Below, one piece after another: positions 5,028-44,935 of a DNA stretch of 64,000 nt. The position numbers and the translations under genes are program-made. Source of the stretch: Rhynchopus sp. YZ270_cl-10 (lineage: Eukaryota); contig OZ037837.1 in NCBI GenBank assembly GCA_964035575.1, positions 1,860,001 to 1,924,000 on the forward strand. The letters run 5' to 3'. The notes beneath the pieces are model-generated. The model did no database searches and had not been told where the DNA came from. It worked only from the letters and a program-made list of their open reading frames with translations. The stretch's first letter is position 1. The number at the start of each line of letters is the position of its first letter.

Positions 5028-5577
5028 TTGTGCTCTTACGACTGTGGCGTCTGTACGGTTGCCGGCTCTCATTTGGTGCAAGGTGAGTGAGTTTTTGACA
5101 ACGTTTTCTTCACACGCTGTGTAGTTGCTCACCAGACGTTCTTTACATGACGGACGGTCCTTCTCAGGTGTGAGGGGAAAGTACAGGGTGTGGCTTTTAC
5201 GGAGCTTCTTCGGAGTGGCTAAAATGTTTTTTAAGCATAATAGGTATCCCTCGCGTGGACAGAGTGTTCGCACTTCCAACATTTATTTTTTCGGTGACAT
5301 GACACTTGTGACATATCGTAGGAAATCTTTTAGTATGCGCGAAGACGATTCTTGTGCTCCTCATTCTCCCCACACACTATGTCAATACAACAGGTTAGAC
5401 CGTTTGGCCTGGGAGGGTTTGGGGTTTCTTCTTTCTCTCAGTTCAATCTTGAACAATTTCGAGAGGAGTTTTATTTATTTTTCAAAAAAAAAAAAAAAAA
5501 AAAATGAAGTACAGAACATGTGAACAAGTGAGGTATTCTCACTGTCATGACGCTTCTCCGTCGTACGAGGACACCTG

Positions 5578-6710
5578 CGCCGCCACAACAACTTTGGTAT
5601 AAGAACCATTTGTTGTTTATTTTCTACACCTACGCCGCCACAACAACTAGGTATAAGAACCTCTTGTTGTTTATTTTCAACACTTACGCCGCCACAACAA
5701 CTAGGTATAAGAACCTCTTGTTGTTTATTTTATACACTTACGCCGCCACAACAACTTTGGTATAAGAACCTCTTGTTGTCTATTTTATACACTTACGCCG
5801 CCACAACAACTAGGTATAAGAACCTCTTGTTGTTTATTTTATACACTTACGCCGCCACAACAACTAGGTATAAGAACCTCTTGTTGTTTATTTTATACAC
5901 TTACGCCGCCACAACAACTTTGGTATAAGAACCTCTTGTTGTTTATTTTATACACTTACGCCGCCACAACAACTAGGTATAAGAACCTCTTGTTGTTTAT
6001 TTTCAACACTTACGCCGCCACAACAACTAGGTATAAGAACCTCTTGTTGTTTATTTTCAACACTTACGCCGCCACAACAACTAGGTATAAGAACCTCTTG
6101 TTGTCTATTTTATACACTTACGCCGCCACAACAACTTTGGTATAAGAACCTCTTGTTGTTTATTTTATACACTTACGCCGCCACAACAACTTTGGTATAA
6201 GAACCTCTTGTTGTTTATTGTCTACACCTACGCCGCCACAACAACTAGGTATAAGAACCTCTTGTTGTTTATTTTCAACACTTACGCCGCCACAACAACT
6301 AGGTATAAGAACCTCTTGTTGTTTATTTTATACACTTACGCCGCCACAACAACTTTGGTATAAGAACCTCTTGTTGTTTATTGTCTACACCTACGCCGCC
6401 ACAACAACTAGGTATAAGAACCTCTTGTTGTTTATTTTCAACACTTACGCCGCTACAACAACTAGGTATAAGAACCTCTTGTTGTTTATTTTATACACTT
6501 ACGCCGCCACAACAACTAGGTATAAGAACCTCTTGTTGTTTATTTTATACACATGCACCGCTACAACAACTAGGTATAAGAACCTCTTGTTGTTTATTTT
6601 CAACACTTACGCCGCTACAACAACTAGGTATAAGAACCTCTTGTTGTTTATTTTATACACTTACGCCGCCACAACAACTTTGGTATAAGAACCATTTGTT
6701 GTTTATTTCC
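5578..6710. repeat. 54-56 bp minisatellite, ~21 copies
   Basis: Unit ACTTACGCCGCCACAACAACT(AG/TTG)GTATAAGAACCTCTTGTTGTTTATTTTATAC with an internal ACAACAA/TTGTTGT inverted repeat. No unique spacers. Confidence 0.95.
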
Positions 6711-7699
6711 ACACCTTCGACCCTCAACCAAATTGAATCTTATACGGTAGCGGAACCCCTGATTCTACACTCTTTCGCCGCTCCGACAAATGTCCCTATA
6801 AGAAGGGCACCCCTCGCCGGTCTGCCGTGTTCTAGTCCCTAAAAGGAAGGTCACTCTGCTGACTTGGGTTTCAAGTCCCTATAAGAAGGGCACCCTTTGG
6901 AGTTTTGGTCTGTGAAGATGCTGCCAGTTACAACACCCACACGCGCTGCGTATGCGAAAAACGTGCTCTACGACGCTGTTTTGCGCGCAGCCCAGAGTCA
7001 GCCTTAGGGGTTCAGTCAGCGTTTTTTGACGACATAATCCGGCCTACGGGGTTTGGCATTAATTTCGAAAGGCCTTCAAATGCTGGGATATACACAGAGG
7101 ACAGCAGTTACGTGGAGATTCCCGGATGTGCTGTCCAGATCTGCCAACACGGACACAGTACATTTACAATCACCCGCACCCCAGAGAAGTTTGTCTCGCA
7201 GTACCTAGAGGTGGCAGCCAGCTCCCTTCTCCGACCACCCCATCTGACCACCCAAGCCCACTCAAGTGCACAGAGCGCGACACTCGCAAACGGCGACCTG
7301 TGAAGGAACCGCCCTCGACTTCCAAGGCGGCATCCTCTCAGACTGCCCTGCGTGGCCACCGGTGTCAGACATCAACAGGCTTTACTGCCCAGATGGTTCC
7401 AACACAAGGATGTCCAGGCATTTTCCTTCGTACCGTCGATTAAGGTCCTCGACACAGACGACAGGATTCAAAAAAGTTACGTTTCCTGCCAAACTACAAC
7501 ATCGACTTCACGAGACAGTGTGCCTCATCATACTTTCAACTATGATGGCAAGCGGTTTTTTGGAGCCTGTGCCACATGCACCGAAGTCCAAAAGGGGTGT
7601 GCGGATGTCGAAAAGTTTCTGCACCTTCTACCGTGCAGTCAACTATTTCCAGGGACTGCAGAACTACGACCCCGTCGCACTGATCACCCTCCGCCCTAT

Positions 7700-8280
7700 T
7701 CATGTACGTGTCGAAGATGTTTCCGCGGCAGACAAGACACATTTCACCGCGTTTCGGTCGTGTCTTTCTCTGGGAAGATCAAGGACGGACAGAAGGCACG
7801 CACCAGGGGTCCCAACTACAAATCCGAAACCAAGAAGGACATGGCTGTGAAGAACATCCAGCGCCGCAGCGATTGTACCCTGCTCAGAATGGAGCGTTAC
7901 CAGGAGGCCGTGTTGAGGACGTGCCCTGTGGTAACATTTGTGAAGACTGCGACCAACCGACGAGAAGGAGAGCGAGTGCTACCCCCTGAAGGACATGAAG
8001 TACACTGTATCGCCCGCTGTGCGTGTCGCTGTGGAGTGCTCCTCCCCCGCCGACCTACCCAAGCTTGTTGAGGGACTGAAGCGTCTGCCGAAGTCCGACC
8101 CGCTTATGCAGTGCTCGATTGAGGAGTCGGGAGAACACACCATCGCCGGAGCGGGAGAGCTTCGCTTTGATATCTGTCTGAAGAATCTTCAGGAGGACTA
8201 CATGACTGTGTCAAGTGGAAGATCTACGAGCCGTTGCGTCGTTTCGTGAGACCATCACCGAAGTGTCTGACGAACAAGCA
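7700..8280 (+). pseudogene. EEF2: Frameshifted internal fragment of eukaryotic elongation factor 2 inside SDR1
   Basis: Across three frames: [132 protein letters not shown]. These are recognisable eEF2 domain II-III motifs. Confidence 0.9.
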
Positions 8281-11159
8281 CACCCATCTTTTCTGCAGGG
8301 GAGCGCTCCTTGGAGACAACTACTACCATTACTACACAGACTCACGGACGACGGGGTGAGCACTCCGAAGGATGTCTGCAACAAGAACTTACCAGGCACT
8401 ACACCTTCCCACCCAGCTGCGGGGGCCGCTTATCTGCTTCCGTGCATACCAGCAGCAACAGCTCCACAGAAGCCCACCTGCTTCAGAGAGACGTCAACCT
8501 GCTCGCGACCACGACCGACGCCTTCGAGGACTTCCCCGTGAGGATACAAGTTCGTTTACATGAAATGCGGAGTACTTACTTGTGGTGACCTTACTGCCGA
8601 TGCTGTATTTTGTTTGACTGAAATCCCCTAGAGGAGGCCACTATTCGGCAGTCCTCAAGATGAGGAAACCTTTTGTCGACCGAAGTCCTCCGGAGTAGGC
8701 AACTTTTGAGGGTTCTCGTTTAAGAGGTGAAGTACTCAGCAAAGTTTACTGTAAGCCCTCCGAGAGAGGTCTCCATTGCTGAAGCCCTGAAGATTGATAC
8801 GCATGGTGAGGTGGAAGACAACAGAACAAAGAACAATGGACGTTGATGCTGCAGAGAACACCTGGGCAGTTTCACTTCTCAGAAACACGGGCGTTACCGA
8901 TTCAGCCGGCCCTCGTGATGGGAGATGACACGTGGAAATACTACGTGCGGGCATACAACAAGCTTCCTTGGGAGCAAGCGACCAAGTTCGACAAAACTGA
9001 CGAAATCAGAGGGTACAACGCGTGGGGTGACCTTGTACAGCCGCATTTTCATGGACACGAAATCGCAAGTCCACACCAGGAATAACGTCATGCATCGTAG
9101 TAGATGTCGAAGCTGGCGTTTTCGCGGAGTGCCCCGACACTGTACAACACCAAAGATGAGCAGGCAGCAACAAGAAGTCGAGAGAGAGAGCCTCCGCTCC
9201 GTTGTGCAGGAACATCGAAATAGTAGACGAAGCGATTTCCGACGCACGACAGCGATTACTCGACGCCGATTGCAAAATATAGGCAAGCTTCTAAACCACA
9301 GCTAGCGATGTTGAGGCAACCTGGACTGTTGTTTTCCAAGAGAGACAACTGGTGACCGTTAGAAGTTCACTTGTTTTGCAGGGCCGATCCTTTTGCCGCA
9401 CCCAGACTCGTGAATACGACCATCGTCCAATCTCTCACGCACCCGGTCTACACCATGCTCATTACGTGAACACTACAACGTGCGTGCCTAAATTACTGTT
9501 GGGGGATTTTCATCATCGGAACAATGCCTTTGTGGTATCCTACGCAGCTGCTGCGTTGCAAGAACGTATCTAAGGAAAGTGACGAAGCACGCGAGACTTC
9601 GGGCCATCATATATCATTTTTATCTCAATCCCTGCATTACGTGCCTTACGCAGTTACTCTATTTATTTGCAGCCACACAGAACAATTTCGGGCCAGAGCT
9701 CCTCCCGAGCTCCTGGATGGATCATCCCGTTTCGCTGAAGAAGTTTTTTCGCGTAGCGTCCCTTGAGGGTCCCAAGGGTCCTGGGTGTGATCTGGGGTGA
9801 GGAAGCGTTCCAACTTTTCAACCTCTTCCCCAATTTACCTTTCACGCCTTTTTTACCCTCCCCCGTTTTAGAATCAACAGAGAGTGTACGTTAAGATTTT
9901 TCGGTGACATGACACTTGTGACATATCGTAGGAAATCTTTTAGTATGCGCGAAGACGATTCTTGTGCTCCTCATTCTCCCCACACACTATGTCAATACAA
10001 CAGGTTAGACCGTTTGGTCTGGGAGGGTTTGGGGTTTCTTCTTTCTCTCAGTTCAATCTTGAACAATTTCGAGAGGAGTTTTATTTATTTTTCAAAAAAA
10101 AAAAAAAAAAAAAAAAAAGAAAGTTTAGAAGGGAGTAGGTTTCATCGTCAGAAGAACCCACCCTATTCAAACCCAAACCTTTGTATTGTAGTGTGATCTG
10201 GGGTGAGGAAGCGTTCCAACTTTTCAACCTCTTCCCCAATTTACCTTTCACGCCTTTTTTACCCTCCCCCGTTTTAGAATCAACAGAGAGTGTACGTTAA
10301 GATTTTTAATAGAAATTGGAAAAATGTTGAACAACAATCATTGAACAATGGAAGCAAAATCAATATTTTCACTATGCAGGTGTGCATTATGCCACTCTCT
10401 TCACCTTTGCTTTTTTGTCCTAACAACCACTGCGTTCTTGTATCGCTCAACTATTTTGGTGTCATCTGGGCGAGGAAACGTATCAACCATAGTTGCTTGT
10501 GTACCTGTTTCTGACATTGAACCACCACCACCACTCCCGCTGCAGATCGATTTGTCTGCAGTCAGGTTTCGCCTTTCCAGGTGGAAGCACCAACACCCCT
10601 TTCCTTCCTTTTTATTTGCTTCCTCTCCTCCTTCCTCCCCTGTCCCCGATGTGCATTACTGTGTATTATGCTCGGTTGTTTTTTGTGTCTGTTTGCGCTT
10701 TCTTTTAAACGTTTCTCCATGTATTGCACGGGAAACAATATGACAAACAGGTGCAGGGTGGTTCCGTGCATAGAACCTGGCACCTTGTGTGTCTTCCAAA
10801 AACCAAAAGCGTTGTGTGTGAAGTTTTGAAGGAAGGAAAAATAAAATTCTTTGGAAAGATTTGTCACAAAATATTTTCAAAGAAACAAAAAGCAATTTGA
10901 AATAGGTAGTTGATCCCTTTTAACTTTTTTTTGTGATTTTGAAGTAGCACCGAAGTGTCTCCGGTCTGTGAAGGTTTAAATCAAAAGCAAAAGTGGAGTG
11001 CATCCTGTGGTGTCTACACTCATGCACTAATAAAAGTAAGTTTCAAAAAACATGACAGGTGCCCCTTCGCGTGGACAGAGTGTTCGCACTTTCCAACTTT
11101 TATTTTATTAGAAATTGGAAACCTGTTCAGCCAACAATCATTGAACAAATGTCAATGTT

Positions 11160-14038: not shown

Positions 14039-14145
14039 AATGTTCACAACCATGGTAATGTTATGGTAACATCACGGTTAACATAGTGGCGTCGTGAACT
14101 GGTGTGAAGTTGTGAATCAAATTGATTTTGATTTTTTTCGCAGTG

Positions 14146-14745
14146 CACAGTATACACAGTATACACAGTATACACAGTATACACAGTATACACAGTATAC
14201 ACAGTATACACAGTATACACAGTATACACAGTATACACAGTATACACAGTATACACAGTATACACAGTATACACAGTATACACAGTATACACAGTATACA
14301 CAGTATACACAGTATACACAGTATACACAGTATACACAGTATACACAGTATACACAGTATACACAGTATACACAGTATACACAGTATACACAGTATACAC
14401 AGTATACACAGTATACACAGTATACACAGTATACACAGTATACACAGTATACACAGTATACACAGTATACACAGTATACACAGTATACACAGTATACACA
14501 GTATACACAGTATACACAGTATACACAGTATACACAGTATACACAGTATACACAGTATACACAGTATACACAGTATACACAGTATACACAGTATACACAG
14601 TATACACAGTATACACAGTATACACAGTATACACAGTATACACAGTATACACAGTATACACAGTATACACAGTATACACAGTATACACAGTATACACAGT
14701 ATACACAGTATACACAGTATACACAGTATACACAGTATACACAGT
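14146..14745. repeat. (CACAGTATA)n satellite, ~66 copies; reverse complement of the 1455-1872 array
   Basis: Directly visible. Decays into (CAGTACACC)x3 at ~14751-14783. Confidence 0.98.
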
Positions 14746-15061
14746 TTTCACAGTACACCCAGTACACCCAGTACACCCAGTACTTATTAAATGTCAACAA
14801 AAATATTATTTTTCACGATGCAGGTGTGTATTATTCCACCACCTTCTTCATCCATACTGCCCACATTACCTAATCCACACACCTGCATTCTTTTCCAAGA
14901 AGTGCATATTTTTGTCCCTTCAACACACACGTTCTGTCTTTGAACACTATGTGTCACTTTCCCCACTCTCCCGCATCCTCTTGCCCACAGTACCCAGTCC
15001 CCACAAGAACACCACACCACAACAGGAACCCTACACGTGACGGGAGCGGCTGTGTGGTGGG

Positions 15062-16828: not shown

Positions 16829-16949
16829 CTATCAGGAGATGCTGAAGATCATCTTATGAACTTTTCTCTTTTTTGAACTCAACATTTGTGAGGACAAGGG
16901 GGTGGATACGAGTCTTAATAACCAATCATACAATGAGATTTTCCACAAT

Positions 16950-18080: not shown

Positions 18081-18379
18081 GGGGGTGTGTCGAGGCGTGC
18101 GCGTGCTGGGAGTGTAAGCTACAATTCACTTTGCGCTATTGTGCTTGAGTGAAACAGTGTCGGCTGGCTGGCAGATCCTCGCCGTGGCTCATCCACACAC
18201 CTGCATTCTTTTCCAAGAAGTGCATATTTTTGTCCCTTCAACACACACGTTCTGTCTTTGAACACTATGTGTCACTTTCCCCACTCTCCCGCATCCTCTT
18301 GCCCACAGCACCCAGTCCCCACAAGAACACCACACCACAACAGGAACCCTACACGTGACGGGAGCGGCTGTGTGGTGGG

Positions 18380-20161: not shown

Positions 20162-20188
20162 CTATCAGGAAATGCTGAAGATCATCTT

Positions 20189-22043: not shown

Positions 22044-22045
22044 TT

Positions 22046-26265: not shown

Positions 26266-29200
26266 TTCTTTTTGGTGCATCGAGACGTTATGTGTTCTTT
26301 ATAAGATTGTCTGATGGAGGCAGTATCGGCGACAGTGGGGGAAATAGAGGGGGGTATGAGTTCAGAGAGACTGGGGTTATTGTCTCAGGACCGAGTCAGG
26401 TAGTTGAACTTCATCCTTTTTTAAATAGTGTGGATCTTTGCAGTCGTCGGTTATGTCTGAAAATTCTTAAGTCCACTTTGTGAGGGCCTTTTATTAACAT
26501 TAAAGGCCACCAGACCTGACGCTAAACAGTTACGAAAATCGCACTTTTTGGGCTTGGAATTCGGGTTTTTTTACGGGTTTTTTTACACGGGAAAAAGGTA
26601 CATTTTTCGACCCTGGTCCATGTCTGGTGGTGAAAATCATAATTTTTTTTGCCCACATGATACGTTTCGAACACACTTATCGCTAAATATGCCGTTTTCC
26701 CCGAAAATTTTGAGAACCCCACGTCCAATTTCTTTCGTTTTTGGTGCTCCGGGAGGGGTCGATATTGACAGGTCGCTGACAGGTCGCTGACACAGGGACT
26801 CTATACACACACCCCCTGATATTGACAGGTCGTTGACCGACTTCCGAAAGCACCAGTTTTGGAAAAAAAAATTCCGCGCTGCGCGCGAAAAAGGTCCTCA
26901 GAAGCTCAATTCCGAAAGCAAATACGGGGAGCGAAGTCTTCCAACTCCTCCGCCATCAGCAGGAACACCTCCGTTTTCTCTTGAACCTGTTACGCTTGTG
27001 CTGAGAAACAAGGCAACAGCGAGTTCAAGAATATTCCCCATCTTTTCGTTGTTAAACTCGGTGCCTGTTCATGAAGAACCATCAGCTTCTCAATAGTGCT
27101 GTGAGAAAGGCGGTGGCGTCTCTTTGCGTAGATGTAGTCAGGAGAGAGAATCCTTGTTCAACAGCAACCAAAGACGGGGAGTGCACTACCGGTGCAGCCT
27201 CCAAAACCCGTGCGAGAGTGTCCCCATTTTCCAAGAAAACTTCGAGAAAACCGCGTTCTGCCACGGTACGCCACATTTCAAAATCGCGCTTAAAATTGCA
27301 CTTTTTTCGCAGCCAAACTGTGTCATAAGAAGGGTGTAATGCAAGCTTGCGCCGCAGGCGCACGGTACGCTACTTTTTTCTTTGGCCATATCCTTCTTTC
27401 TCACTCCTTATTGGGTTCGACGTGTTCCGTCCGTCAAATGGTGGGGTCACAACATGCAGCAAAGTTTGCAACTACGCAAACTGCCCCCACGTTCACTTTG
27501 TACTTTTCCTTCAGAAGACAAGTACCATCGGGACCATACGGAACTGAATTTTTTTTTGCGAAGCAAAAAAAAAATATATATAAAATGGCGCCGCAGGCGA
27601 AAAAATAATAAAACCTACATTCTCGAACTTTTCTACTGACGTGATTTTCATTGGACGCATCCCCTTCTCCAATTCAATTCAATAAAACTGTAGCTTTCTC
27701 CTCAGAATTCGTGAAACAACCCGCGCCAAGTCTGCTGAGTCATACAACCCGCGCCAAGGCTGCTGAGTCGGATGACAAAGAGTGAGGGCGAAGCACCACA
27801 CGTATGAGCCCAAATGCTGCGCTTGTATGCTGTATGCAAGTCGTATCCTAAACAGTAAAAAACAAAGGTGTGTAGGTTAGTTGCCAACAGTACGTCCCTC
27901 GACGGTACTGTGCGTAAAACCGGCCCAAGGGTACTATGACGCATACATATAAGCATAACATGCGACGAGCGCTAGGCCCAACGTGCATAACCAGTAACAA
28001 ACAGAGGGACGCATCTGCGTGCTTACTTTCTTACTTTCTTTCTTTCCTTTTTTTTTTTTTTTTTTTTTGAAAAACGAGAAACGCTAATTGTATTTTTGGC
28101 CCCCTCTGTGAGTATTGATTGAATTGGAGTCGGGGAGCACAAGCAAAGGGCAATGAAAGGAAAACAATGAACATTAAACAAGCTAGAAAAGAGACAGTAT
28201 ATATTTCCGAACACACACACACACACACACTATTCAAATCATTCAATCCGAAAGAGCCCAATCATTTCGGTTTGTATTATTTCCTTACAAACCGTACGCG
28301 TACCGCTTCGTATGTTTGTATACAAAAATAATAAAACCTACATTCTCGAACTTTTCTACTGACGTGATTTTCATTGGACGCATCCTCCAGGACCCTAAGG
28401 ACCCCGAGGGACGCTGCGCGAACAAAAACCCCAAAACATGGTATAAAAAATTGAAATTGCACCCTACCTTTCCTTTTTATGTATTTCCCCACCCCCGCAA
28501 AGAATAAAGCAATAAAAACAATAAAGACAAAGGAGAGAGGTTGTGGCGAAACGCACACACCTCTACCTGTCGGTGCAATGTGGCCCTACTCCAACCCGAA
28601 AAGTGGAAGAGGATGGGAGTAGGGGTACGGTATTCAACTTCCTTACAGTCTTGCATGTAATCATAAAAGGTAATCTGGCCACAGTACGACAATAAGAACC
28701 GGACAGAAGAACAGAACCAAAATAAGAGAATAGGCATTGTAATATGAAGTGCCTTTCGTGCACCTACATCCTTTGAGGTGGCTTGCAGTCCAAGGTCCGC
28801 TCGTGGGAGTGTGGTTATGTTTGTGACTGGTGTATCAGCGGATCCCACCCCTGCAGGCCCACATCTACTACGAGTTCTCCAAGGACTATGAACTACAACC
28901 CACGGAGAAACTGAAACTGCATTCCTACCTTTCCCTTATTGTATTATCCCACCCCCGCAATCACGAAAACTAAAGGCAAAATGGAGAGGCTGTGGTAGAA
29001 TGCACACCTCGGCCTATCGGTGAGATGTGTCTCTACGTCAAACCGCCTCAGAATAGAAACAGGGAGGGATTAAGGGCACAGTTCAATATACTATTTGCAT
29101 AGTCGGGAAACGTAAACAGAATTCAACATATGCATTGAAATGATAGCGTGAAATGGATGAGAAAACGGGCTGGACCATTTGAATCCAGGTACCGTAATAG

Positions 29201-30502
29201 TAAAAACACCTAATACACAAAACATGTGGAACGCAACACAATTTGGAAAAGACGCGATGGTGAACAAACAACCCACGCAGTGCACTGTTGGCGTAACCCT
29301 CAACAAAGGTTCGTCAGTCTCAGCAAACCCCCCACAGTGGGCACGAGGCACCACAGCAACGAGGTAGCATCAACCCTACGTGTTTGTCACTCAAACTGCA
29401 TACGTCTTGGAAAAGAAGTAAGATAGATAACAAGTGCGAAGTGCGCACTAAACCCCTCACCCTCGAATATTTCGTTCTCGTCTTCCTGGCTCGCCAAAGG
29501 AATCTGTCGCTAGGCCAGGCTCCACAACATCAGTACTTCGACGACCAAATGCAATGAGCAACTGTTGCAGGACCACCGATCACTCTCTTCATCCTCGACA
29601 GTGCGTAGCTGTGTGTCAACTAAGAAGCTGCGCGCAGGCCTCAGTGTTGTTCTAAACGGGTACGCAACAGCCGTAGCCTGACAGCACTGCTCAGCTGAGG
29701 AAGTCTTCGGACGGAAGGCACGGCAGAACAGGCTCATGGGGTAGAACACTACGGTGGTCTAGAGAAGATGATGCTGAATGTACTGTGCATGATGACGGCC
29801 GATGAGTAGGAGCAGGAAGGGCGTAGAGAGCTAGAAAACGCTACACTAAAATCGACCATAATCGGGGACATCGTCATCGGCAGTGCCTACTGCGAGACCC
29901 CACCGCGGACATATACTAGCGATGAGGAGCACTCTGTGAGGTAACATCCTGGATAAGACCCTCAACACCAAAGGGGATATGTTAGAGAGCTTGACAGCAG
30001 TCCTATGCTGGTCCACTTCCACGGACGGAAACATTAACACGGTCTGCTCAGCTCCCCAGCATGCCTTGAGCACATGTTCGATACTGCTGACGCACACTGG
30101 TGCATTCTTGCCGATCAGGGAGAACTGCATCAGTCACTGCGCGAGCGCGTAGCCGAGATCACACTCTCAGCGTGCGGTAACCAGAGGTACTGCGCCGTTT
30201 GCCGAGCGTGAGACCGCATCTGGACCTGCTACAGCAGCTGGAACCGCGTCGTCTGCGGCGTCTGAGCAGGCGCAGTCCGGAACTGCGGCGACGACTGAAC
30301 ATGTGACCGCGGAAACAGCGCTGAGCGTGCGGCTTCTAACTGGCACTGTACCGCTATGCGCCGTAGACCTACACCTGTGTACTATAATGCTGCGGCAATA
30401 ACCAGACGCAACGGAGTCAAAGTGGGTGGCAAAAGTGCGCCAAACGGTCGCAGTTACGCAGAGAATAATTGCAGTGCGCATCAAGAAAATGAGAATACTT
30501 AA

Positions 30503-30916
30503 CCTATCCACTACCACCTTTACATATATGTAAAGGTTAATCGGCACTAGCCTCCAAGACATTAAAAACTGGTCAAAAGTGGAAATTTTTTTTTTTAATG
30601 GCTTCCGGGAGGTTGAAATGTGTGATTCCCCTATTTTTTTTTTTTGGATTTTTTAGAATTTGATTTTTGATTTTTTCCGCCACCCACAACACGCACATCA
30701 AGGAAAATGCGTGAAACAGGGGGGGACGGGTCACAGCCGAACAAATGCGATTTTTCGATTTTGATTCTCAGAACCGCAGAAGTCCCCGAAGACCATACCA
30801 AACCACCTAGAGGACCCAAAAAATGCACCATCGACCCGGTTTTGACCCAGAAACACTCAGATGATTCCAAAAAAATAAACGGGAAAAAAACCCCACACCC
30901 CCTGGTAGTGGATAGG
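30503..30916. mobile_element. piggyBac-like MITE, 414 bp
   Basis: TTAA at 30499-30502 and 30917-30920. Perfect 14-bp TIR CCTATCCACTACCA. Confidence 0.9.
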
Positions 30917-31439
30917 TTAATATTTCTCTTTAATTGTGATCCCCCGCCCCCACCCCCGTAGATAGTAAGCAATAAGGACAAAGACAATAATACAATCAGA
31001 CATATAAGGACAATAAGGAGCGTAGTAGTGAGACGCCCACAACGCGACCAGTCGGTAAAAAGGGACTGGGATGGTGTTCTATTCCCTCTTAAGCGTCGCA
31101 CGCAACCATACATCGAAGTTGTGCGTAACGGTGTGTGTAAAAATGGGACATACAGTGCGTCAACATGCTACTTTGGCGCTGCGCATACAGCTGAGGCTGC
31201 GGCTGGACTTGTGCTGCGCACTCAGATGAAGCAGCGGCCGTCATTAGAGAAGGGTACACCACCGCAAACCGCCTTCAGTCGACACTGAGCTAAAAACGCT
31301 ACGCCAAAAAATAATAGGCGTAACGGGGTGAAATGTGAGGCAACAGTGCACCCAACGGTCGCCTCTGTGCGCAAAGAAACTATAGTGCACTGCAAACAAA
31401 TGTGCACCTGTGTGTTACAAAGGAAGCAACAGTGTGACG

Positions 31440-32721
31440 TCAAGCAGAAAACGGTGTGTCGGCCTTGTTGCTGCGCTGCCTACAGAAGCTGCATTTACTG
31501 CGCTGCCTGCAGAAGCTGCTGCTGCTGTTGTTGTTGCGCCGCCTGGATGGGGGCGGCTGGTCTAGCTGCTGTGCTGCCTGCAGAAGCTGCGGCTGGACTT
31601 GTGCGGCTTGGCTCCACAGCTGGGCGACGTCCCGGATGACGTTTTGTAGGGCCAGCTGCGGAGCCAAGAGTTGCTGCAGGAGCGGCCCGAACGCATCAGG
31701 CTGGGGCATGGCTGGCGCTAGCTGAGGAACCCCCTGCTGCTGAGCCGCGCCCGGGGCCGGCGGCTGGGCTTGCTGGGCAGGAGGGGGTTGTTGGGCCGGT
31801 AGGGCCAGGAGCTGCGCGATCAGCTGCGCCGGCTGCTGCTGCTGCTGCTGCTGCGGACCCGGCTGGGTGGCCGCGTGAGGCCCGAGTAGCTGCGATGGCC
31901 TGCGCGAGACCCTGGGCCGGAAGCTGCGCCATCTGCGGAGGCGGCTGCTGATTCGGCTGTCCTAGCAGCTGCGCCGGGAGTACAGGCGGCTGCGGATGCT
32001 GCGCCACGTGCCCTAACTGCTGCTGGTTTTGATGTACGGGATGCTGCGCCGGGAGCACAGGCGGCTGCGGATGCTGCGCCACGTGCCCTGGCTGCTGCTG
32101 GTTTTGATGTACGGGATGCTGCGCCGGGTGCACAGGCGGCTGCGGTTGCTGCGCCACGTGCCCTGGCTGCTGCTGGTTCTTATGTACGGGATGCTGCGCC
32201 GGGAACACAGGCGGCTGCGGATGCTGCGCCACGTGCAACGGCGGCTGCTGTTCCTGCGGTACGGGTAGCTACGGTGGCGGCTGGTTCTGCCGCTGTGCGA
32301 TGAGCTGTGCGATGAGCTGTGCAATGAGCTGTGCCAACTGAGGCTGCGGCTGGTCCTGAGGCGGACCCCCCTGCGGAACAGGCGCAGGATCCTGGTGTAG
32401 TGGCGGCTGAGGCAGGATCGCATCCTGGTCTACAGCGGCCGGCTCCTCGTCCACCCAGGCGCATACAGGGCAAGTAAACTCAGTGGTGTGATAATTGACG
32501 AGAAAAGCGGCGGCGATGGCTTGCGTGGGGAGCTTATCCTTGACACACTGGTGATGGGCGCCGTATCCGCAGATCCAGCAATACTGCGTGTTATGTGCGA
32601 CGGGGCCTGAGGGGAAGACACAACCATGCTGAAGGAGAGCGGGCTGCGCCGGAGTAGGCAAGGGTCTAGCGCTCACCCAATCCACCTCATCCAAACAATG
32701 TGTCTCTAGATCTGCCCTCAA
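31440..32721 (-). pseudogene. Disrupted ORF1/Gag-like gene of SDR2: PHD-like Cys/His finger followed by Q/P-rich repeats
   Basis: C..CWICGYGAHHQC..FTCPVC pattern. One in-frame TAG at 32269-71 separates it from the same-frame 31696-32238 ORF, which has 75-bp (25-aa) HVAQHPQPPV repeats. A frameshift follows. It lies directly behind the 5' A repeat. The Gag identity is inference from position. Confidence 0.5.
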
Positions 32722-33362
32722 ACGGCATTTTTTTTTTTTTTTTTTTTCAGGATTTTTCAGGATTTTTTCAGGATTTTCCCAGGATTTTCAAATCTTTTCT
32801 CTTTTTTTTTTTTTTTTTTTTTGAAAAACGAGAAACGCTAATTGTATTTTTGGCCCCCTCTGTGAGTATTGATTGAATTGGAGTCGGGGAGCACAAGCAA
32901 AGGGCAATGAAAGGAAAACAATGAACATTAAACAAGCTAGAAAAGAGACAGTATATATTTCCGAACACACACACACACACACACTATTCAAATCATTCAA
33001 TCCGAAAGAGCCCAATCATTTCGGTTTGTATTATTTCCTTACAAACCGTACGCGTAACGCTTCGTATGTTTGTATACAAAAAATTAGGGTACGGTGTAAA
33101 AATATAGCTATTTACACCACAGAGCAGTCACTCAACGAACCCTTTTTGCGGAGCAAAAAATGAAAACTGGCGCCGCAGGCAAAAAAAAAAAATTGAAGGT
33201 ACAGCCTCCCGGGTCAACCCTACAGAATTTTCCCGTAAAAAAAGACTCCTCAAAATTTCCCGGAAAAAAAAGGATTTTCCCACGTAAAATTTCCCGTAAA
33301 AAAAACGACCTCTCAAGGATTTTGGAATTCCACTACGCGGTTTAGCAACATCCCTGAAGGCC

Positions 33363-33396
<34 letters not shown>

Positions 33397-33443
33397 CACG
33401 AATTGTTTCCAGGGTTTTATATAGGAATTTTTTCCTTACCAAA

Positions 33444-35946: not shown

Positions 35947-37409
35947 AAAGGGAGATACTGGGGGGGAGCTATTAAAGTATACGTATACTTTATTCGGCGG
36001 GAATTACTGCTTAAATGGCCAAAAAACGAAAAAGGAAAAAAAAAAAAAAAACACTGTTATTTTGGGGTTTCTAGTGGCCGAAACCTCGCGAAAACACCAC
36101 CATTGGCATTTTTGGGCCAATCCCAGCCAGTGGTGGGGTCAATGTGGAAAAATGAACAATTTTTTGGTGACTTAAATTTTCACAAATCTGAACCCCATCA
36201 GCACCAATCGTGTAAAAACTGATACACGCGTTTTAGGTCAAAAATACTCGTTTCTCAGCGCAAAGTGACCCCATCACAGCACGCACAGAATCCGGACCAC
36301 CGAAATCAAAAAAAAATACTACGGTGTCAATAACTATCTTCGCCCACACAGGAAAACGGGAAACGAAACAGGGGGAGAGTTTGTTAGTTGTACGCTTCCA
36401 CCCTTCCACACACACTCAGGACTGTTGTAATGCTCTTTTTGGTATCTTTTTTTTTTTTTTTTTTTTTTTTTTTGAAAACTGAATGTTTACAAAAACAGAG
36501 CCAAATAGAAAAGGTAAGAAAATGAAAGTCCTGAAGTACAGAAAGTGATGTGTGAGAAGGGAGGAGCACAAGTGAGGGTGAAAACAGTTAGAGCGACCGT
36601 AGCATTTCCCCTGTCAACTGCGTTTGACCTATAAAAATACTACGGTGTCAATAACTATCTTCGCCCACACAGGAAAACGGGAAACGAAACAGGGGGAGAG
36701 TTTGTTAGTTGTACGCTTCCACCCTTCCACACACACTCAGGACTGTTGTAATGCTCTTTTTGGTATCTTTTTTTTTTTTTTTTTTTTTTTTTTTGAAAAC
36801 TGAATGTTTACAAAAACAGAGCCAAATAGAAAAGGTAAGAAAATGAAAGTCCTGAAGTACAGAAAGTGATGTGTGAGAAGGGAGGAGCACAAGTGAGGGT
36901 GAAAACAGTTAGAGCGACCGTAGCATTTCCCCTGTCAACTGCGTTTGACCTATAAAAATACTACGGTGTCAATAACTATCTTCGCCCACACAGGAAAACG
37001 GGAAACGAAACAGGGGGAGAGTTTGTTAGTTGTACGCTTCCACCCAGGACCCTATGGGACGCGGTAGCGCAGAAAAAAAGAATGCCCCAACCACTCCCCA
37101 GCCTTTAAAACAGAGAAAATTATTCGTCCAAAACTACAGCCTCCTGAGCGTTCGTGCCTCGTGTGTATTCGTCTGCCTCTTGCATCGGAATGTTAACGTA
37201 GACACTTCTGATCCGTATGTACTTGTTTCTGGCGACGTCGAATCGTGCAAGCAGCAGGTGTGCCTGGTAACACGTTAAGTGACCCGCGTTAATATAATGC
37301 ACTGCCGCCAGGTTGTCGTGCAGGTTGACAGATTTGGTTAATTAACCGCAGTCGGAGCTAATGAGCTAAGGCGCTAATGAGCGAAGGAGCTAAAGAGCTA
37401 AGGCGCCAA

Positions 37410-37630
37410 GGAGCTAAGGAGCTAAGGAGCTAAGGAGCTAAGGAGCTAAGGAGCTAAGGAGCTAAGGAGCTAAGGAGCTAAGGAGCTAAGGAGCTAAGGA
37501 GCTAAGGAGCTAAGGAGCTAAGGAGCTAAGGAGCTAAGGAGCTAAGGAGCTAAGGAGCTAAGGAGCTAAGGAGCTAAGGAGCTAAGGAGCTAAGGAGCTA
37601 AGGAGCTAAGGAGCTAAGGAGCTAAGGAGC
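37410..37630. repeat. (GGAGCTAA)n microsatellite, ~27 copies
   Basis: Directly visible. Confidence 0.97.
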
Positions 37631-38629
37631 GTGGCAGCGGTTACTAACCGTGGTCGTCATGGGACCTTCACGAAGGATGAGGGCGCATGTGTCTACTTGC
37701 AGGGAAGCCAGAACCGCAGATAACCTTGTTGCGTATACCTCCTTGACGAAAATATGTATGTTCATAACAACATCAAGTGGTTAATGAACGAGCCTTGCAG
37801 GCAGCAGGTATGTCTGGTAACACGTTGAGAAACCCCTGTAAATACAATGCATTGCCGCCAGGTAGTCGGGCAAGCTGGCAGGTTGATAGATTTGGTTAAT
37901 TAACCGTAGTCGGAGCTAATGAGCTAAAGAGCTAATGAGCGTAGCAGATTGGTTAATAAACCGTGGTCGTAATGGCACCCTAGTAAATCTAATGTCTTCG
38001 TACACGGCCTTGCATACGAAGGCAGCACCGTGCTGTCTCCAGGAGACTCTACTCTTATGTGCATTGCTCCTTTCTGTTGTGGTGCCTGCGTTGTTAAGGT
38101 TCTGCGATTGGCTTTGCGGGCGTGCGCCTATTCATGACAACTACATTTGTAGGGTACAGCGTGTACAACGTCAGGTCACGCAGAACTGGATCCTCCTCTT
38201 GACAGCGCTCTCCTTCGCAAGCAACCCTACCTGGGCGACGTTGCCCCTACGCGTGGTGCAAGAGTGTAGCAGATTGGTTAATAAACCGTGGTCGTGGCAC
38301 CCACACGAAGGGTGAGGGTGCATGTGTCTACGTACAGGGAAGGCAGAAACGCAGATTTCTTTGTTGCGTATACCTCCTTTACGAAAATGTGTGTGCCTGG
38401 GTCGCACGCACCTTGTGAATCTCGGTCTGGGGAATCCATCCAGAAGAGCCGTCCATACGGAACCAGCGGAAGTGGTGACTGCAAAAAACTGAAGTTTGAA
38501 TAAAATGGGTCTCAATGCCCAAGACAGCGAAGCGGTGACAGCAGAATACGTAAGATTGAACAACAGGCGCAATGGCCCAACACAGCGATGCGATTAATCG
38601 CAAAAAACGGAGGACCCGTGGCCCAAAAC

Positions 38630-39580
38630 AGCGAGAACGGTAATTGCGAAAACTCCCGTTGAGCACCTTCGTGAAGACCAGTGTGAGGGTGCCGTCTGCA
38701 GGGTAGTCAGCTTCGTAGACATCCCTGTGGTCGCCGAGGGAGTCGAGTTCGTAGCCTTGCGTGTTGCGCAGTGAGAGCATGTTCCTGTATGTCATCCTCA
38801 GCACTCCTGTGCACCTGATTGCCCAGCACTTCGAGGTGGTTGCTGAGGTGGTCGCGTCCATCACACCGGCGTATGACACAGACGTGCTCACTGGACAGCT
38901 CGTGGCAGGCGGCAGCGTCTCTGGTAGTGCTGTCGGGTACGTTTTGTGGGGCAGAACGTATACACCTTGTACACCGCCCATGCCTGTGTAGTCCGACATA
39001 TTCAACCGTGTGTCGTCCGTGTCGACCAGAGATAGTGTGCCAAGATGCCCGCGCACGGCAACACCCACCGGTACTTACCCGCCTCCCTCACGGAACGTGA
39101 CACTGTGTCGAAAGTAGAGTGCCACGCAGGCAGTGTGAGCTGAGTTCTCTTGGGGAAGGATGCGGCAGGCAAAAGGGTCATGCTCGCGTCTTTCGTGCAC
39201 GTCCAGCTCAGGTGGAAGGAGATCGGGAACACGTCAGCGTGAACTCCCCGTTTGCAAGGTATTTACGCACCAACGAGGCGCCTCCGTTTCGTCCCTAAAT
39301 GGCAGTGCGGGCAGTGCCCCAGTGCAGGCCCACGACATGGCAAACGGAAAGTCTGGAGACGTCTTCACCAAGAGATGCACCTCAAAGTCGCCTGACACAT
39401 CGTAGCGTGCAGTGAAGGTGCCCTGCTCTGATGTGGTGTGCACGCTGCCGTTGCTGTGCCCCAGCAGGCACATCTCGTTGCCCACAGCACTGCCAATGTC
39501 CACTGCAACGTCAAGCACACCTTGGCACGGTATCACCCAGCGATGTGCATCCTCCCAGTTGGCCATCCTGAAGTGCGCTC
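38630..39580 (-). pseudogene. Fragmented host-like coding sequence inside SDR3, possibly CUB-like extracellular domains
   Basis: GC-richer stretch with three consecutive broken minus-strand ORFs. NWEDAHRWVIPCQG and SKCWAIRCTGVLRMTY resemble W-x-I-x-C CUB-like motifs. Weak. Confidence 0.35.
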
Positions 39581-39587
39581 CTCATTC

Positions 39588-40331
39588 ATCTCGAACAGCA
39601 ATGGTTAATAAACCTCTTCCAAATCTCGAACAGCAATGGTTAATAAACCTCATTCATCTCGAACAGCAATGGTTAATAAACCTTTTCCAAATCTCGAACA
39701 GCAATGGTTAATAAACCTCTTCCAAATCTCGAACAGCAATGGTTAAATATACCTCATTCAGCTCAAACAGCAATGGTTAATAAACCTCATTCATCTCGAA
39801 CAGCAATGGTTAAATATACCTCATTCATCTCGAAACAGCAATGGTTAATAAACCTTTTCCAAATCTCGAACAGCAATGGTTAATAAACCTCTTCCAAATC
39901 TCGAACAGCAATGGTTAAATATACCTCATTCAGCTCAAACAGCAATGGTTAATAAACCTCATTCATCTCGAACAGCAATGGTTAAATATACCTCATTCAT
40001 CTCGAAACAGCAATGGTTAATAAACCTCTTCCAAATCTCGAACAGCAATGGTTAATAAACCTCTTCCAAATCTCGAACAGCAATGGTTAAATATACCTCA
40101 TTCAGCTCAAACAGCAATGGTTAATAAACCTCATTCATCTCGAACAGCAATGGTTAAATATACCTCATTCATCTCGAACAGCAATGGTTAATAAACCTCT
40201 TCCAAATCTCGAAACGCAATGGTTAAATATACCTCATTCAGCTCGAACAGCAATGGTTAATAAACCTCATCCATCTCGAACGGCAATGGTTAAATATACC
40301 TCATTCATCTCGAAACAGCAATGGTTAATAA
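39588..40331. repeat. 33-36 bp minisatellite, ~22 copies, with 172-bp 5-mer higher-order period
   Basis: Core CGAACAGCAATGGTTAA. The variant GCTCAAACAG recurs at 39761, 39933 and 40105. Confidence 0.93.
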
Positions 40332-40368
40332 ATGTGGCTTCCAATTTTTTTTTTTTTTTTGAAAACTG

Positions 40369-42138
40369 CAGGGCTTCCCGCAGGATCTGGGGGTTTGGCC
40401 TCCCAGGGGGACCAGCCAAAAAAAGGTGAAAAAAATTTTTTTTTCGCGCCTTCAGGGTTTCCGCCAGGATTTGGGGTTTCAGAAATTGGGGGGGACCATC
40501 AAAAAGACCCCCCAAAATTTTTTTTCTCCCCGCAATAGCGGTCGTCGCGCGCTTCGCTGCAGGCCACAGAGTGGAGAGGCGAAGGGTGTGACAACCGTGG
40601 GAGTCTCCTTCTTGACAGCAAAGACAAGTCTGCTCTGCCAGCTTTGGCACAACTTTTTTGCGCCAGGCTTTTTAGCACCAGGTTAGATAGCCGTGCTAAG
40701 CTTCACAGCTGCGTTGTCTGGTAGAGGTAGGTAAGGGGTCTTGTGAGAGTGGAGGGTGATGGTATTTGCTTTTTTCCTTGTATGGCGCCACACAGTGATT
40801 GCAGTGCTGCAGTTGGAACATGTAATGAAAGTGTATGTACTCGTCGCTTGCCGAAGCCTCCTTTTAAAAGGGGCAATGCTCGGAAGTATCAATGGTATCA
40901 ATAATATCAACATCAAAGAGCCAGCAACACAGCGCCGCAGGCGCACGGTACGCTACTTTTTTATTTTTTTAGAGTTCGCCATCCCCTTTTCTTCCACTCC
41001 TTTTGACACAGCGAGTCAAATGCTCTGCACGGTGGGGTCACATGACCACGGGGGGTCATCTACAACCTCCAAAACCCATTTTTCTTAGGGGGGACCATGG
41101 TACCCCCCAAACCCCTGTAAAAATCCGGATTTTTCTGGGAAAAATATTGGGGGGGACCATGGTCCCCCCCGGTCCCCCTTGGCGGAAACCCTGGCCTTGT
41201 TGTGTGTGGTGTGTAGCACTAACGCTGACGCTACGTTACGTTACGTTACGCGCCTCTACGCACTTTAAGTGGTCAAAAATCATTTTTTCGCCTCCGGCGA
41301 AAATGTCCCGGTAAACCGTTAAAACTGCTGCATTCACTCGCATATTGCATATCATCTCACGTTCCCCACCTTTGCGGGATAAGCAAAAAAATCATGTCAG
41401 GTCGGTAGCGTGCAGACGTTTCCTAGTATAGACATCTACAAAAAGAAACGACAGTCATGGCAAAGGTTCCTGGCGAAGCCACGGTACGCAACATTTTAAA
41501 AAAAAAATGTTGCGCACCGATCAAATGGCACTGTCGTTGGTCATTATCGTCAGTTCCCGTAAATGTTACTTCCATATTTTGCTGAACGAAAGTTTTTGGC
41601 GAAGCCACGGTACGCAACATTTCAAAATATTGTGCTTAAAATTGCACTATTTTACAGCCAAACTATGTCATGCGTGGCTTGCAATCTTGCGCCGCAGGCG
41701 CACGGTACGCTACTTTTTTCCTTTCGCCATGTTGCATGCTTCCTTTTCCTTCGGCGTTTGACCAATTGAGTCGCGTTCTGGCTGTGACGGGGTCACTTTG
41801 TTCATGAGGCATACTCGTGGTTCTTTGCAACCGTTATATTCTGCCTCTTCCTGAGCAGATAACTTGGGACTCCGCCGGTCGCTTTGCAAATTCCATTATG
41901 GAAAGCTGTCTTGGTCCAGAGGACTTTTTTGGTGCCATCCTTTCCCCCTGTTAGTTGCCTGTATTTGGATGCGCGGGGACGGGAGGGTAGGAAAAAATTT
42001 AAAAAATGTGGAAAATTCCTAATAGGCAGCTTCGGAACACTCAACGGCAGGCTGGTCCCCCCTGGTCCCCCCTTATTTTTTTTTTTTTCCCCCAGGGGGA
42101 CCAGTGGTCCCCCCTGGTCCCCCCTGTGGGAAGCCCTG
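40369..42138. mobile_element. CAGGG-ended MITE with 5-bp TSD (hAT-like ends), 1770 bp
   Basis: 16-bp TIR CAGGGCTTCCC(G/A)CAGG. AACTG duplicated at 40364-68 and 42139-43. Empty site GAAAACTGAATG at 36474 and 36795. Confidence 0.9.
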
Positions 42139-44935
42139 AACTGAATGTTTACAAAAACAGAGCCAAATAGAAAAGGTAAGAAAATGAAAGTCCTGAAGTA
42201 CAGAAAGTGATGTGTGAGAAGGGAGGAGCACAAGTGAGGGTGAAAACAGTTAGAGCGACCGTAGCATTTCCCCTGTCAACTGCGTTTGACCTATAAAAAA
42301 TTTTTCGATTTTTTGTGCAAAACTTGCTGAAAAATTTTTTTAGTAAGAAAAATGTACACAAAAACCGTATACTTTATTTCACAGATTTACACGCTCAAAA
42401 TGGGTTTCCGCACCGTATACTTTATTACCCCCGTATACTTTATTAGCACCGTATACTTTATTAGCCCCCCCCCAGTAGTCAGACTTACCCTACCCTATTT
42501 TGAAAAAGTTCAGACTTGCCCTATGAAAAAGTTCAGACTTGCCCGAAAATAAGTTCAGACTTGCCCTAAAAGTGTTTTTAGGGCAAGTCTGAACTTATTT
42601 TTAGGGCAAACACTTTTTTTAGGGCAAGTCTGAACTTTTTTAGGGCAAGTCTGAACTTTTTTAGGGCAAGTCTGAACTTTTTTAGGGCAAGTCTGAACTT
42701 ATTTTTAGGGTAAGTCTGAACTTATTTTAGGGCAACAAGTCAGGCCACTTTGGCTGGGGCACTCTTGGGGCCCCATGTGGTATGACTTGTTTTATTGCCC
42801 TAAAATGCCTAACCGAGCCGGAGCCCAAAAATTGATGCCAGAAACCACCAGCCACCCGGAAAGGGTGAACAGGCAGTCCACGTTGGGCCAGAACCGGTTA
42901 CAAAGGAAGCCGTGTTCTGGGGCAACGTGGGGCGCAAAGTTTTACAATTTTCATGCACGGGTGCTCCACAAATTACCAAGTATTCCTTCTTTGTTGAATT
43001 GAGAGAGAGTCAGTGTTTAGCTACCACGCGGGTTTGCTTAGAATCCTTCGAGGCCGGCACAATTTTATTTATGTGGTCGGTTAAGACATGCCTATTGAAG
43101 AACAACGAGGTCATCGTTGAAAGGAGCGAACTCCCCTTCCCACAACATCTCTCACATTTCAACTCAGAATTCATACTTGGTTATTTGCTTTGTCCATACG
43201 CAATCAAATTGTCATGCTTTCAAGAGCATGCCTGGCCAAAATGCAACAACGTAGAAAAATTGTTGTTGTTCCAAAAGGCAACAAGACCACCCACAAGGGG
43301 TTGAATTGTGCACTGTCCGGGGGAGCGCAAAGTTTTTTCCCTGTACACAGTGGACACATCTTTATCACTTTGTTCCCACGGGGACACATTTGGATACTGC
43401 ACGCATGCAGAAGTGCCAAACATGTCCGCACGTGGAGTGGAGTGTCCATCATGTTTTCCTGGTTTCCAAAAAGCAGTTTTCTTGCACTTACTATTTGCCC
43501 CGGTGTCTGGCAATAGAAGTGGCTAACATTGTAATGAGTAGCATATACATACCGTTGATCCAAATGAGTAAGGCGACCAACAAGTCCTCTGGACTTTTTT
43601 GTTGTGACGACAATCGCGGAGTAATCCCGGAGAATTACATCCTCGTATAAAAAGTTAAAGGTAGAGGTGGGGAAACTGTAGCTATAGAAATAGTTGTTGC
43701 AGTAGTGCAGACACCCGAGGGTGCACCACTATGCTTTTCTTTGGTTGTATCGACAATTTTACGTACATGATGTAGGACCTGTACAATGTCGCCCAAAGGC
43801 TTTGTACTTACTGCAGTAATCGGTATTTTTTTTTTGTTACTACTACGTCGTGTTCTATGAGGAGTCGCGTTTGGGTGCGGAAGTCTTTTTTCTGGTCTCT
43901 GTTCTGTACGGGTCTCGGATCGTGGTGCGGTACTGCGGTGCGGTACCTGAGAGTTTTTTAGAGTGATGATAAAGGTCAGAGGGTTTTCCCCTCCCATTTG
44001 TGTCATTATTTAATTTTGCTCGGAAAGTGGGGTGTCCTGGACACGAGGAAATTCAGTTGCATGGAAAAAAAGTTGCATACCATAGGTTGCTCATTTCACT
44101 ACCAGGACTCGTCGCGAATAGCCCATACGTGCCCTAAACAGAAACGCAAAAACGACGACCGCCGGGCTCTGTAACCCAAGAGCCCCCAGCTTGCCCAATA
44201 AATAAGTGCAGGGTTGCCCTAAAAAAGTTCAGACTTGCCCTAAAAAAGTTCAGACTTGCCCTAAAAAAAGTGTTTGCCCTAAAAATAAGTTCAGACTTGC
44301 CCGAAATAAGTTCAGACTTGCCCTAAAAACACTTTTAGGGCAAGTCTGAACTTATTTCGGGCAAGTCTGAACTTTTTCAAAATAGGGTAGGGTAAATCTG
44401 ACTATTTCCCAAAAAAAAAAAAAAAAATGCCGGAAAACGCCTAAGTACAAAATAATACTTTGGACAGCTTTTTGTGAAGGAATTACCCTAGCTATCCACC
44501 CCCTAGTATTTCTAAAAACGAAAGTTTCTGGCGAAGCCACGGTACGCAACATTTCAAAAATATAAATGCGCTTAAAATTGACCATTTTTTCAGCCAAACT
44601 ATGTCATGGGAAGGGTGCATTGCAAGCTTGCGCCGCAGGTGCACGGTACGCTACTTTTTTTTCTTCCGCCATGCTGCATGCTTCCTTTTCCTTCGGCGTT
44701 TGACCAATTGAGTCGCGTTCTGGTCTCCCACGGTTGATGAAACGATGAGAAAAAAATCGCCAAAAACTCGTAACGATGGTTAGCAAAATGCCTGCCGAAC
44801 CCCTCCTCAAAAAAATAAAATAAAATAAAAAATCCTGGTAGGGCAGGAGGGCGGACCTTGCCCTACCAGGAAAAAAAACCAAATTTAATAGGTATGGCGA
44901 ATGCCATACCAGCCTGATCAGGCACGACAGCACTG

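Follow-up and report, generated by a model that had tools for sequence, protein, structure and literature searches.

Three split-repeat elements and their interiors

We analyzed a 64,000-nt stretch of DNA from the euglenozoan Rhynchopus sp. YZ270_cl-10 (contig OZ037837.1, positions 1,860,001 to 1,924,000; hereafter the window, in whose coordinates all positions are given) and describe three mobile elements with split direct repeats, SDR1, SDR2 and SDR3. In 3/3 elements two repeats, A and B, are arranged as A1-interior-B1-A2-x-B2, with A1 at the 5′ end, B1, A2 and B2 at the 3′ end and x a short unique spacer. Their parts are as follows (ORF, open reading frame; TIR, terminal inverted repeat; MITE, miniature inverted-repeat transposable element; T6 and A21 denote runs of that length).

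5286..10307, plus: whole SDR1, A1-interior-B1-A2-x-B2; empty paralogs near 75-252 and 10966-11148
5286..5504, plus: SDR1 A1, with T6 border, CTTGTGCTCC at 5351, and TTTTC followed by A21
5571..6708, plus: SDR1 54-bp satellite, about 21 copies, immediately 3′ of A1
7745..8216, plus: frameshifted fragment of host eEF2, end of domain II plus domain III, in separate frames
9756..9784, plus: SDR1 pre-B1 signal, GCGTCCC..AGGGTCCTGG, ending exactly at the start of B1/B2 identity
9785..10307, plus: SDR1 3′ block, B1 9785-9901, A2 9897-10118, x 10119-10190, B2 10191-10307
9968..10209, plus: SDR1 inverted repeat of A2 with x/B2, a predicted hairpin with the poly-A in its loop
27600..33083, minus: whole SDR2, set in a T-run that belongs to a high-copy repeat; an empty paralog lies near 35525
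32802..33083, minus: SDR2 A1, with T6 border, CTTGTGCTCC at 32897, and TTTTC followed by A21
31440..32787, minus: SDR2 decayed ORF1, a PHD-like C4HC3 finger, then Q/P-rich repeats
30499..30920, no strand assigned: TTAA-flanked MITE nested in SDR2, TIRs of at least 13 bp
28387..28414, minus: SDR2 pre-B1 signal, a motif match
27600..28385, minus: SDR2 3′ block, B1 28385-28324, A2 28323-28048, x 28047-27663, B2 27662-27600
36308..42300, minus: whole SDR3, A1(split)-interior-B1-A2-x-B2-A3-x-B3
40345..42300, minus: SDR3 A1, parts 42294-42139 and 40368-40345, interrupted by the nested TIR element
40369..42138, no strand assigned: 1.77-kb non-coding TIR element, CAGGGCTTCCC ends (CAGGG), 5-bp CAGTT duplication
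39580..40332, minus: SDR3 35-bp satellite, about 22 copies, immediately 3′ of A1
38625..39581, minus: SDR3 cargo, a stop- and frameshift-broken piece of a host repeated-domain protein family
37044..37062, minus: SDR3 pre-B1 signal, a motif match
36308..37045, minus: SDR3 3′ block, B1 37045-36954 plus two A-x-B units, each with a predicted A-to-x/B hairpin

The split-repeat architecture of the three elements is real. Defined by self-BLAST and pairwise alignment, the repeats lie within 1-4 nt of where a first-pass annotation of this DNA had placed an A-internal-B-A-x-B layout, and copies within an element are 99.3-100% identical: A1 and A2 differ at one position in SDR1, at one in SDR2 and at none over the 161 nt aligned in SDR3, and B1 and B2 are 100% identical over 117 nt (SDR1), 62 nt (SDR2) and 92 nt (SDR3). 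SDR3 has a doubled tail, B-A-x-B-A-x-B, with two 321-bp A-x-B units that show 0 differences. The string TTTTC plus 10 or more A is found seven times in the window, at A ends in 7/7 cases and nowhere else, as the annotation had said of every A, with measured poly-A lengths of 16-27 (21 and 25 in SDR1, 21 and 21 in SDR2, and 16, 27 and 27 in SDR3). The annotation had also seen one and the same short T-run at every junction and border. This is true of the internal B|A junctions, which read ATTTTT (A+T5) in 4/4 cases, but the outer borders vary within A+T5-9 (6/6; left T6 in 3/3, right T5, T6 and T9). Apart from the T-run we see no duplication at the borders of the three elements, and the annotated lack of any other target-site duplication (TSD) stands. 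The paralogous empty sites, which had been taken to set the limits of SDR1 and SDR2, carry T4 for SDR1 and T8 for SDR2; they therefore confirm the position of insertion but not the exact number of T residues.

These elements are young, multi-copy mobile families. Depth was taken from assembled contigs of four runs (X1-X4) from two studies, out of ten runs listed, with SDR1 covered over 6730-11200. The contig joining the right end of SDR1 to its flank has depths of 113, 508, 119 and 196 in the four runs, and interior contigs with 0-3 substitutions reach 5.5-7.1x (X1), 3.7-6.7x (X2), 5.6-6.3x (X3) and 2.6-3.1x (X4) that of the junction contig, which implies that other copies reside in other flanks; diverged, internally deleted variants of the interior add further copies. 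A single-copy contig of 19.8 kb matches 7312-7587. When depths are added up at a single site in A and a single site in B of SDR1, they come to 31-204x baseline; summing inflates this figure, which nonetheless indicates that A/B units far outnumber SDR1 interiors. Contig joints running from A to B without x are also present. SDR2 lies in a high-copy repeat, and in 4/4 runs some contigs skip the element entirely; its near-exact interior contigs reach only 0.5-1.6x. Contigs of a diverged subfamily of ORF1 stand at about 8x in X1 and at 4-5x in X4, and they continue into sequence not present in the window. Each of the three families has near-identical interior ORFs on further ENA contigs (P0002 for SDR1, P0001 for SDR2 and P0024 for SDR3). 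The multi-copy status of SDR3 is drawn from these protein copies together with partial depth, its interior lying mostly outside the depth data.

SDR1 carries multiplied host-gene cargo, a piece of eEF2 that by eye extends from about 7680 to 8300. It matches Pfam EFG_III (E 3.9e-11) and eEF2 in PDB (E 1.8e-31 and 5e-4), and is the sole convincing Pfam match within the elements among 23 ORFs and 148 six-frame peptides, the latter set comprising peptides of at least 42 aa outside the satellites and the TIR element nested in SDR3. P0002, 99% identical to the eEF2-fragment ORF, lies on a different ENA contig, and a contig at about 6x matches part of the fragment exactly. A third eEF2-like frame at 7684-7986 had no PDB match, and a homologue search with the ORF at 8810-9082 returned none.

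SDR3 likewise carries multiplied host-gene cargo, a piece of about 960 bp with 24-49% identity per aligned stretch to a family of repeated-domain proteins. Twenty-one matches to this family reach E 0.001, 20 of them at 31-41% identity, and signal-peptide-like starts suggest that the source family is probably one of secreted proteins. P0024, a 98% copy of the cargo ORF, lies on two ENA contigs, which could include haplotypes or a second assembly, and P0003, which is 100% identical to the cargo ORF, may be the window's own copy. The TIR element in SDR3 A1, a later insertion, includes copies of a very high-copy GCCTGCGGCGC repeat family, seen at 27588, 33170, 34005, 35425, 35529, 40932 and 41689.

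The insertion point of SDR2 is a T-run adjoining the GCCTGCGGCGC motif. The SDR2 interior resembles a decayed ORF1 accompanied by nested repeats, and host cargo is not proven there; the annotated view that interiors consist of host fragments and satellites fits SDR1 and SDR3 but not, as far as host cargo goes, SDR2. The C4HC3 PHD-like Cys/His pattern of ORF1 is complete only when the window copy and P0001 are read together, a Pfam search gave no PHD match, and PHD matches of 0.75-0.78 in a protein atlas serve as leads only; ORF1 is without a named homologue. It occupies the place of the gag-like ORF1 of tyrosine recombinase (YR) elements and could equally be cargo. The MITE nested in SDR2, whose ends we take to be piggyBac-like, is apparently missing from one sister SDR2 contig, and a repeat seen at 769-1005 is also present in the interior, in three decayed copies.

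Signals common to the three families

The first-pass annotation had described the elements as unrelated in sequence, with no A or B similarity to each other. This does not hold for two short words present in all three. The exact 10-mer CTTGTGCTCC has seven matches in the window, 7/7 of them in A copies, and AGGGTCCTGG has three, 3/3 just upstream of B1. In the respective regions the three families share no longer word, and a word of this length was reached by 1/2000 shuffled triplets in each case; common words in B, x and interior starts were not significant (811, 2000 and 569 of 2000 shuffles). The pre-B1 regions of SDR1 and SDR2 align at 85% identity over 41 nt (E 1e-5), and beyond these motifs there is no strong cross-family alignment of A or B. 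A composite pattern from GCGTCCC over AGGGTCCTGG through GGAWGCGT matches three times in the window and 0 times in 100 shuffles; as it was derived from those three sites, it shows only absence elsewhere. B1/B2 identity begins −2 to +1 nt from the end of AGGGTCCTGG in 3/3 elements. A conserved fold of the pre-B1 motif was considered and rejected as not significant.

A third signal is predicted in structure and is specific to each family. The stretch of each A that starts at its motif or just past it can pair with the x/B2 boundary of the same element, with the poly-A in between (in SDR2 the A2 arm near 28136-28114 pairs with 27660-27683). Of 1000 shuffles within each family, 2, 0 and 7 attained the same complementarity, as against 37-688 of 1000 for six cross-family control pairs and 533, 820 and 84 for A against pre-B1. 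Under RNA and DNA parameters the predicted fold pairs A with x/B over 22-42 bases at a probability above 0.6, leaving the poly-A in the loop of the predicted A-to-x/B2 hairpin. One X2 contig fuses the A motif straight to the start of B, as a deletion of the hairpin interior would.

A fourth family may be represented at 430-1036 by a decayed solo A-x-B unit, with TTTTC and a degenerate A-run near 685-700. GGATGCGT at 718 resembles the start of SDR1 B, the arm match there being only 8 nt, and the 769-1005 part of this unit is high-copy.

Class assignment, replication and competing explanations

The order A1-B1-A2-B2 without a TSD defines PAT, Ngaro and VIPER/TATE elements in the sections drawn upon from three sources (PMC6681497; PMC12278014; PMC4157794). 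Like VIPER/SIRE of Trypanosoma cruzi and TATE of Leishmania, as portrayed in those parts of the literature, the elements described here have the A1..B1-A2-B2 arrangement, repeats close to 100% identical and of similar size, no TSD and a euglenozoan host. SIRE is given in an excerpt of PMC6681497 as A, about 30 bp of unique sequence and B, and both it and our elements thus present A-x-B with a short unique spacer, which bears out a parallel drawn in the first-pass annotation. These comparisons are of structure alone. Unlike VIPER/TATE as described in part in the same source, our elements hold satellites and host fragments in place of gag, YR and reverse transcriptase (RT)-RNase H genes, and the sections of PMC6681497 considered here mention neither the poly-A at A ends nor the pre-B1 motif nor the A/x hairpin for VIPER/TATE.

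The copies in the window show the repeat order, the B|A core at the borders without a TSD and the dispersed multi-copy distribution of non-autonomous PAT/Ngaro/VIPER-like elements, and do not carry the gag-like, RT/RNase H and tyrosine recombinase genes of autonomous ones. Being multi-copy, with no enzyme remnant in the 148 six-frame peptides, they sit well with the annotated status of non-autonomous families. Since layout and borders match YR groups, with a parallel in SIRE and a host in the group of VIPER and TATE, we consider that they are probably, in the manner of SIRE and TOC1, non-autonomous derivatives of VIPER/TATE/Ngaro-type YR retroelements, which would use the RT and tyrosine recombinase of an unseen helper.

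In TOC1 of Chlamydomonas reinhardtii the repeats are likewise split and accompanied by a unique spacer, tandem repeats lie inside the element, and host-gene cargo is not known; unlike TOC1, our elements form three parallel families with common cis-signals. It is classed as a non-autonomous DIRS-order element in the extract of PMC9940879 used here. In Cafeteria burkhardae, as partly reported in PMC8547959, several types of Ngaro with an A1-ORFs-B1A2B2 arrangement and no nucleotide similarity to each other share one genome, and solo AB repeats and ORF1 deletions occur; unlike our elements these encode RT/RNase H and YR, and the same portion describes no cargo. For DIRS elements, junction sequences have been proposed to define integration sites, and DIRS-1 needs an internal copy of the junction, has an RT that acts in trans and has no determined primer (PMC7192593, in the passages concerned). 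The RT in trans and the required junction copy make trans-mobilised, cargo-filled derivatives plausible. Further context comes from parts of PMC10161547, PMC12477816, PMC13317346, PMC3783388 and bioRxiv 2022.05.23.493040.

From the repeat boundaries we infer how such elements might be copied and recombined. An RNA would start near the end of A1 and stop in B2; minus-strand cDNA would start in B2, where the hairpin would place the conserved A motif beside the start site; and plus-strand DNA would start at the end of AGGGTCCTGG, copying B1-A2. The 3′ oligo-T of the cDNA would then anneal to the poly-A of the B1-A2 copy and continue through A and B, a strand transfer that would rebuild A1, B2 and a circle junction B|A, and the recombinase would cross the ATTTTT of this junction with a genomic T-run, leaving no true TSD. 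A slippery oligo-T/poly-A strand transfer would account for the end of A homology at a poly-A whose length varies. Plus-strand priming, which fixes the edge of a long terminal repeat, would in the same way set the start of B homology at the end of the conserved motif, and if a B|A junction recombines with a T-run, the junction core would be expected at both borders. Whatever lies between A1 and the pre-B1 signal would ride along, so that satellites and host fragments are amplified. The capture may be a trait of this lineage, as the first-pass annotation had it, or host DNA may have been acquired in an ordinary way and then transposed. Self-priming from the hairpin was rejected on the reasoning that x would stay uncopied.

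More tentatively, the elements may belong to a euglenozoan ‘Pack-type’ branch of YR retroelements in which only three cis-signals are conserved and the interior is freely replaced by pieces of host mRNA; as part of this possible but doubtful reading, the signals would be a primer-like motif at the B1 boundary, a poly-A for strand transfer and a co-evolving A-to-x/B2 hairpin. The gene-less split-repeat design is already known, and what our elements add is the amplified host-gene pieces of two families and the conserved cis-signals. A full-text literature search, covering titles and the openings of abstracts, with subscription papers on PAT, Ngaro and TOC1 outside its scope, found none on such capture or signals. 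The boundary motifs offer mutable targets for asking how reverse transcription is primed in YR retrotransposons and carried to completion, and shared signals would mark the sites of copying steps. Host-gene pieces amplified inside split-repeat elements would place YR elements among gene-capturing transposons; were the ‘Pack-type’ reading true, the cis-acting sites of split-repeat replication would be mapped for the first time, and YR elements would offer a route by which gene fragments are shuffled.

Several results weigh against the assignment to YR retroelements and the signals attached to it. None of the 148 six-frame peptides matches RT, RNase H, YR, HUH, helicase, GIY-YIG or DDE domains in Pfam, and the lack of the first three is what counts here. 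Motif scans of metagenomes gave 0 strict and nine loose matches, none with the A motif or a poly-A, and no helper; from their context we judged the nine to be chance, and a scan of viral contigs gave 0 matches. An inverted dyad of recombinase type beside the B|A junction was rejected as not significant (126-349 of 1000 shuffles). Alignment with cheap gaps left the SDR2 hairpin arm non-significant (197 of 1000), whole-unit folding is weak for SDR1 (z −0.9) and SDR2 (z −1.5) and strong only for SDR3 (z −5.2), and in a folding control SDR2 A also paired with an unrelated, unanchored pre-B1 stretch; three families are too few for covariation statistics. Depth in contig assemblies is a rough estimate of copy number that summing over-counts, and one of the four runs from two studies may be the source of the assembly itself.

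Among other explanations, a rolling-circle origin would make each element a head-to-tail co-integrate of A-interior-B and A-x-B, moved as single-stranded DNA by the Rep/helicase of Helitron2/Helentron elements, with which satellites are also compatible. Helitron2 elements are described, in the portion of PMC5148889 concerned, as inserting at T-runs with some ATTTT ends and no TSD, as capturing genes and as bearing asymmetric inverted repeats, so that the T-runs, ATTTT ends, satellites and capture seen here count toward this explanation and away from YR retroelements. The tandemly repeated small unit of SDR3 and the Helitron-like ORFs known in Diplonema point the same way. T-run insertion without a TSD is a feature that non-autonomous Helitron2/Helentron elements, which also resemble ours in gene capture, have in common with YR elements. 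Unlike Helitron2, however, our elements have neither the asymmetric terminal inverted repeat (935, 335 and 344 of 1000 shuffles) nor a significant 5′ or 3′ terminal hairpin (z −1.2 to +1.2 in the three elements), and a split-repeat tail is not among the Helitron features in that portion of PMC5148889. The inverted arm instead lies 60-190 nt inside A, with x as its partner, and in 3/3 families the pre-B1 motif is in the large unit and the arm in the small one, which makes the units non-equivalent; rolling-circle read-through would moreover be expected to repeat the same interior. We regard this origin as quite improbable. Of roughly similar standing, and simply unlikely, is a retroelement or single-stranded DNA element of the same layout moved by enzymes that have so far not been linked to split repeats, the poly-A and hairpin then being signals for those enzymes. 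Poly-A-ended A repeats and an A/x hairpin were not found in the portion of the split-repeat literature covered, SDR2 ORF1 is PHD-like but nameless, and no YR remnant was found; yet each defining structural feature fits known YR groups, VIPER/TATE occur in a sister lineage, and missing remnants are expected for non-autonomous copies.

Penelope-like elements carry a hammerhead ribozyme in their repeats and encode RT plus GIY-YIG, features that our elements lack. Retroposition of this or of a non-LTR (ingi/SLACS-type) kind, with poly-A tails and tandem partial copies making the repeats, would account for the poly-A runs and T-run targets, and MRC1, once held to be an LTR element, has been reassigned to Penelope-like elements. 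The poly-A is, however, internal and the element ends are B, the 5′ ends are precise in 3/3, no variable TSD is seen, and neither a hammerhead nor a hepatitis delta virus (HDV) ribozyme was found: Rfam at E up to 1 over 1-48000 gave 49 matches, all below the gathering score and none a ribozyme, and a scan for the hammerhead core on both strands of the three elements gave none. Such an origin is very unlikely. Local duplication or misassembly at single loci, finally, is hardly credible. The region is very repeat-rich, and the 100% identical 321-bp tandem of SDR3 could reflect mis-assembly or unequal crossover, but identical motifs recur in three families, paralogous ORFs lie elsewhere, and single-locus duplication, the outcome that the first-pass annotation had named as refuting its reading, is contradicted for SDR1 and SDR2 by multi-copy depth against a single-copy junction and by empty-site contigs.

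Other features of the window

Around the elements runs an array of transmembrane adenylate-cyclase-like genes (2796-5027, 15041-16828, 18359-20161 and 45931-47721), with chimeric or broken copies and repeats between them; the best PDB matches of these genes are to trypanosome GRESAG4 (E 2e-22), which points to a euglenozoan host, and the gene content suggests a diplonemid. At 23131-26265, an ORF of 1044 codons with Pro/Ala and Gln/Pro repeats ends in a C-terminal ubiquitin-specific protease domain (Pfam UCH, E 2e-44). At the 3′ flank of this ORF contig depth is several times that of a single locus, and the ORF may sit in a repeated or mobile unit.

Several tandem arrays are also present. Perfect 9-bp arrays at 1455-1872 and 14146-14782 are in opposite orientation, and a 1.5-kb array of 8-bp units at 11513-13045 shows a gradient between unit types, with TGTGATTTT repeats on its flanks. 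Two elements of about 1.9 kb (42476-44404 and 20189-22043) lie between long inverted arrays of 21-bp units and are possibly foldback-type transposons. The 48900-64000 part of the window is a long run of repeats of about 510 bp at 68-85% identity, apparently the gene of a very large repeated-domain protein.

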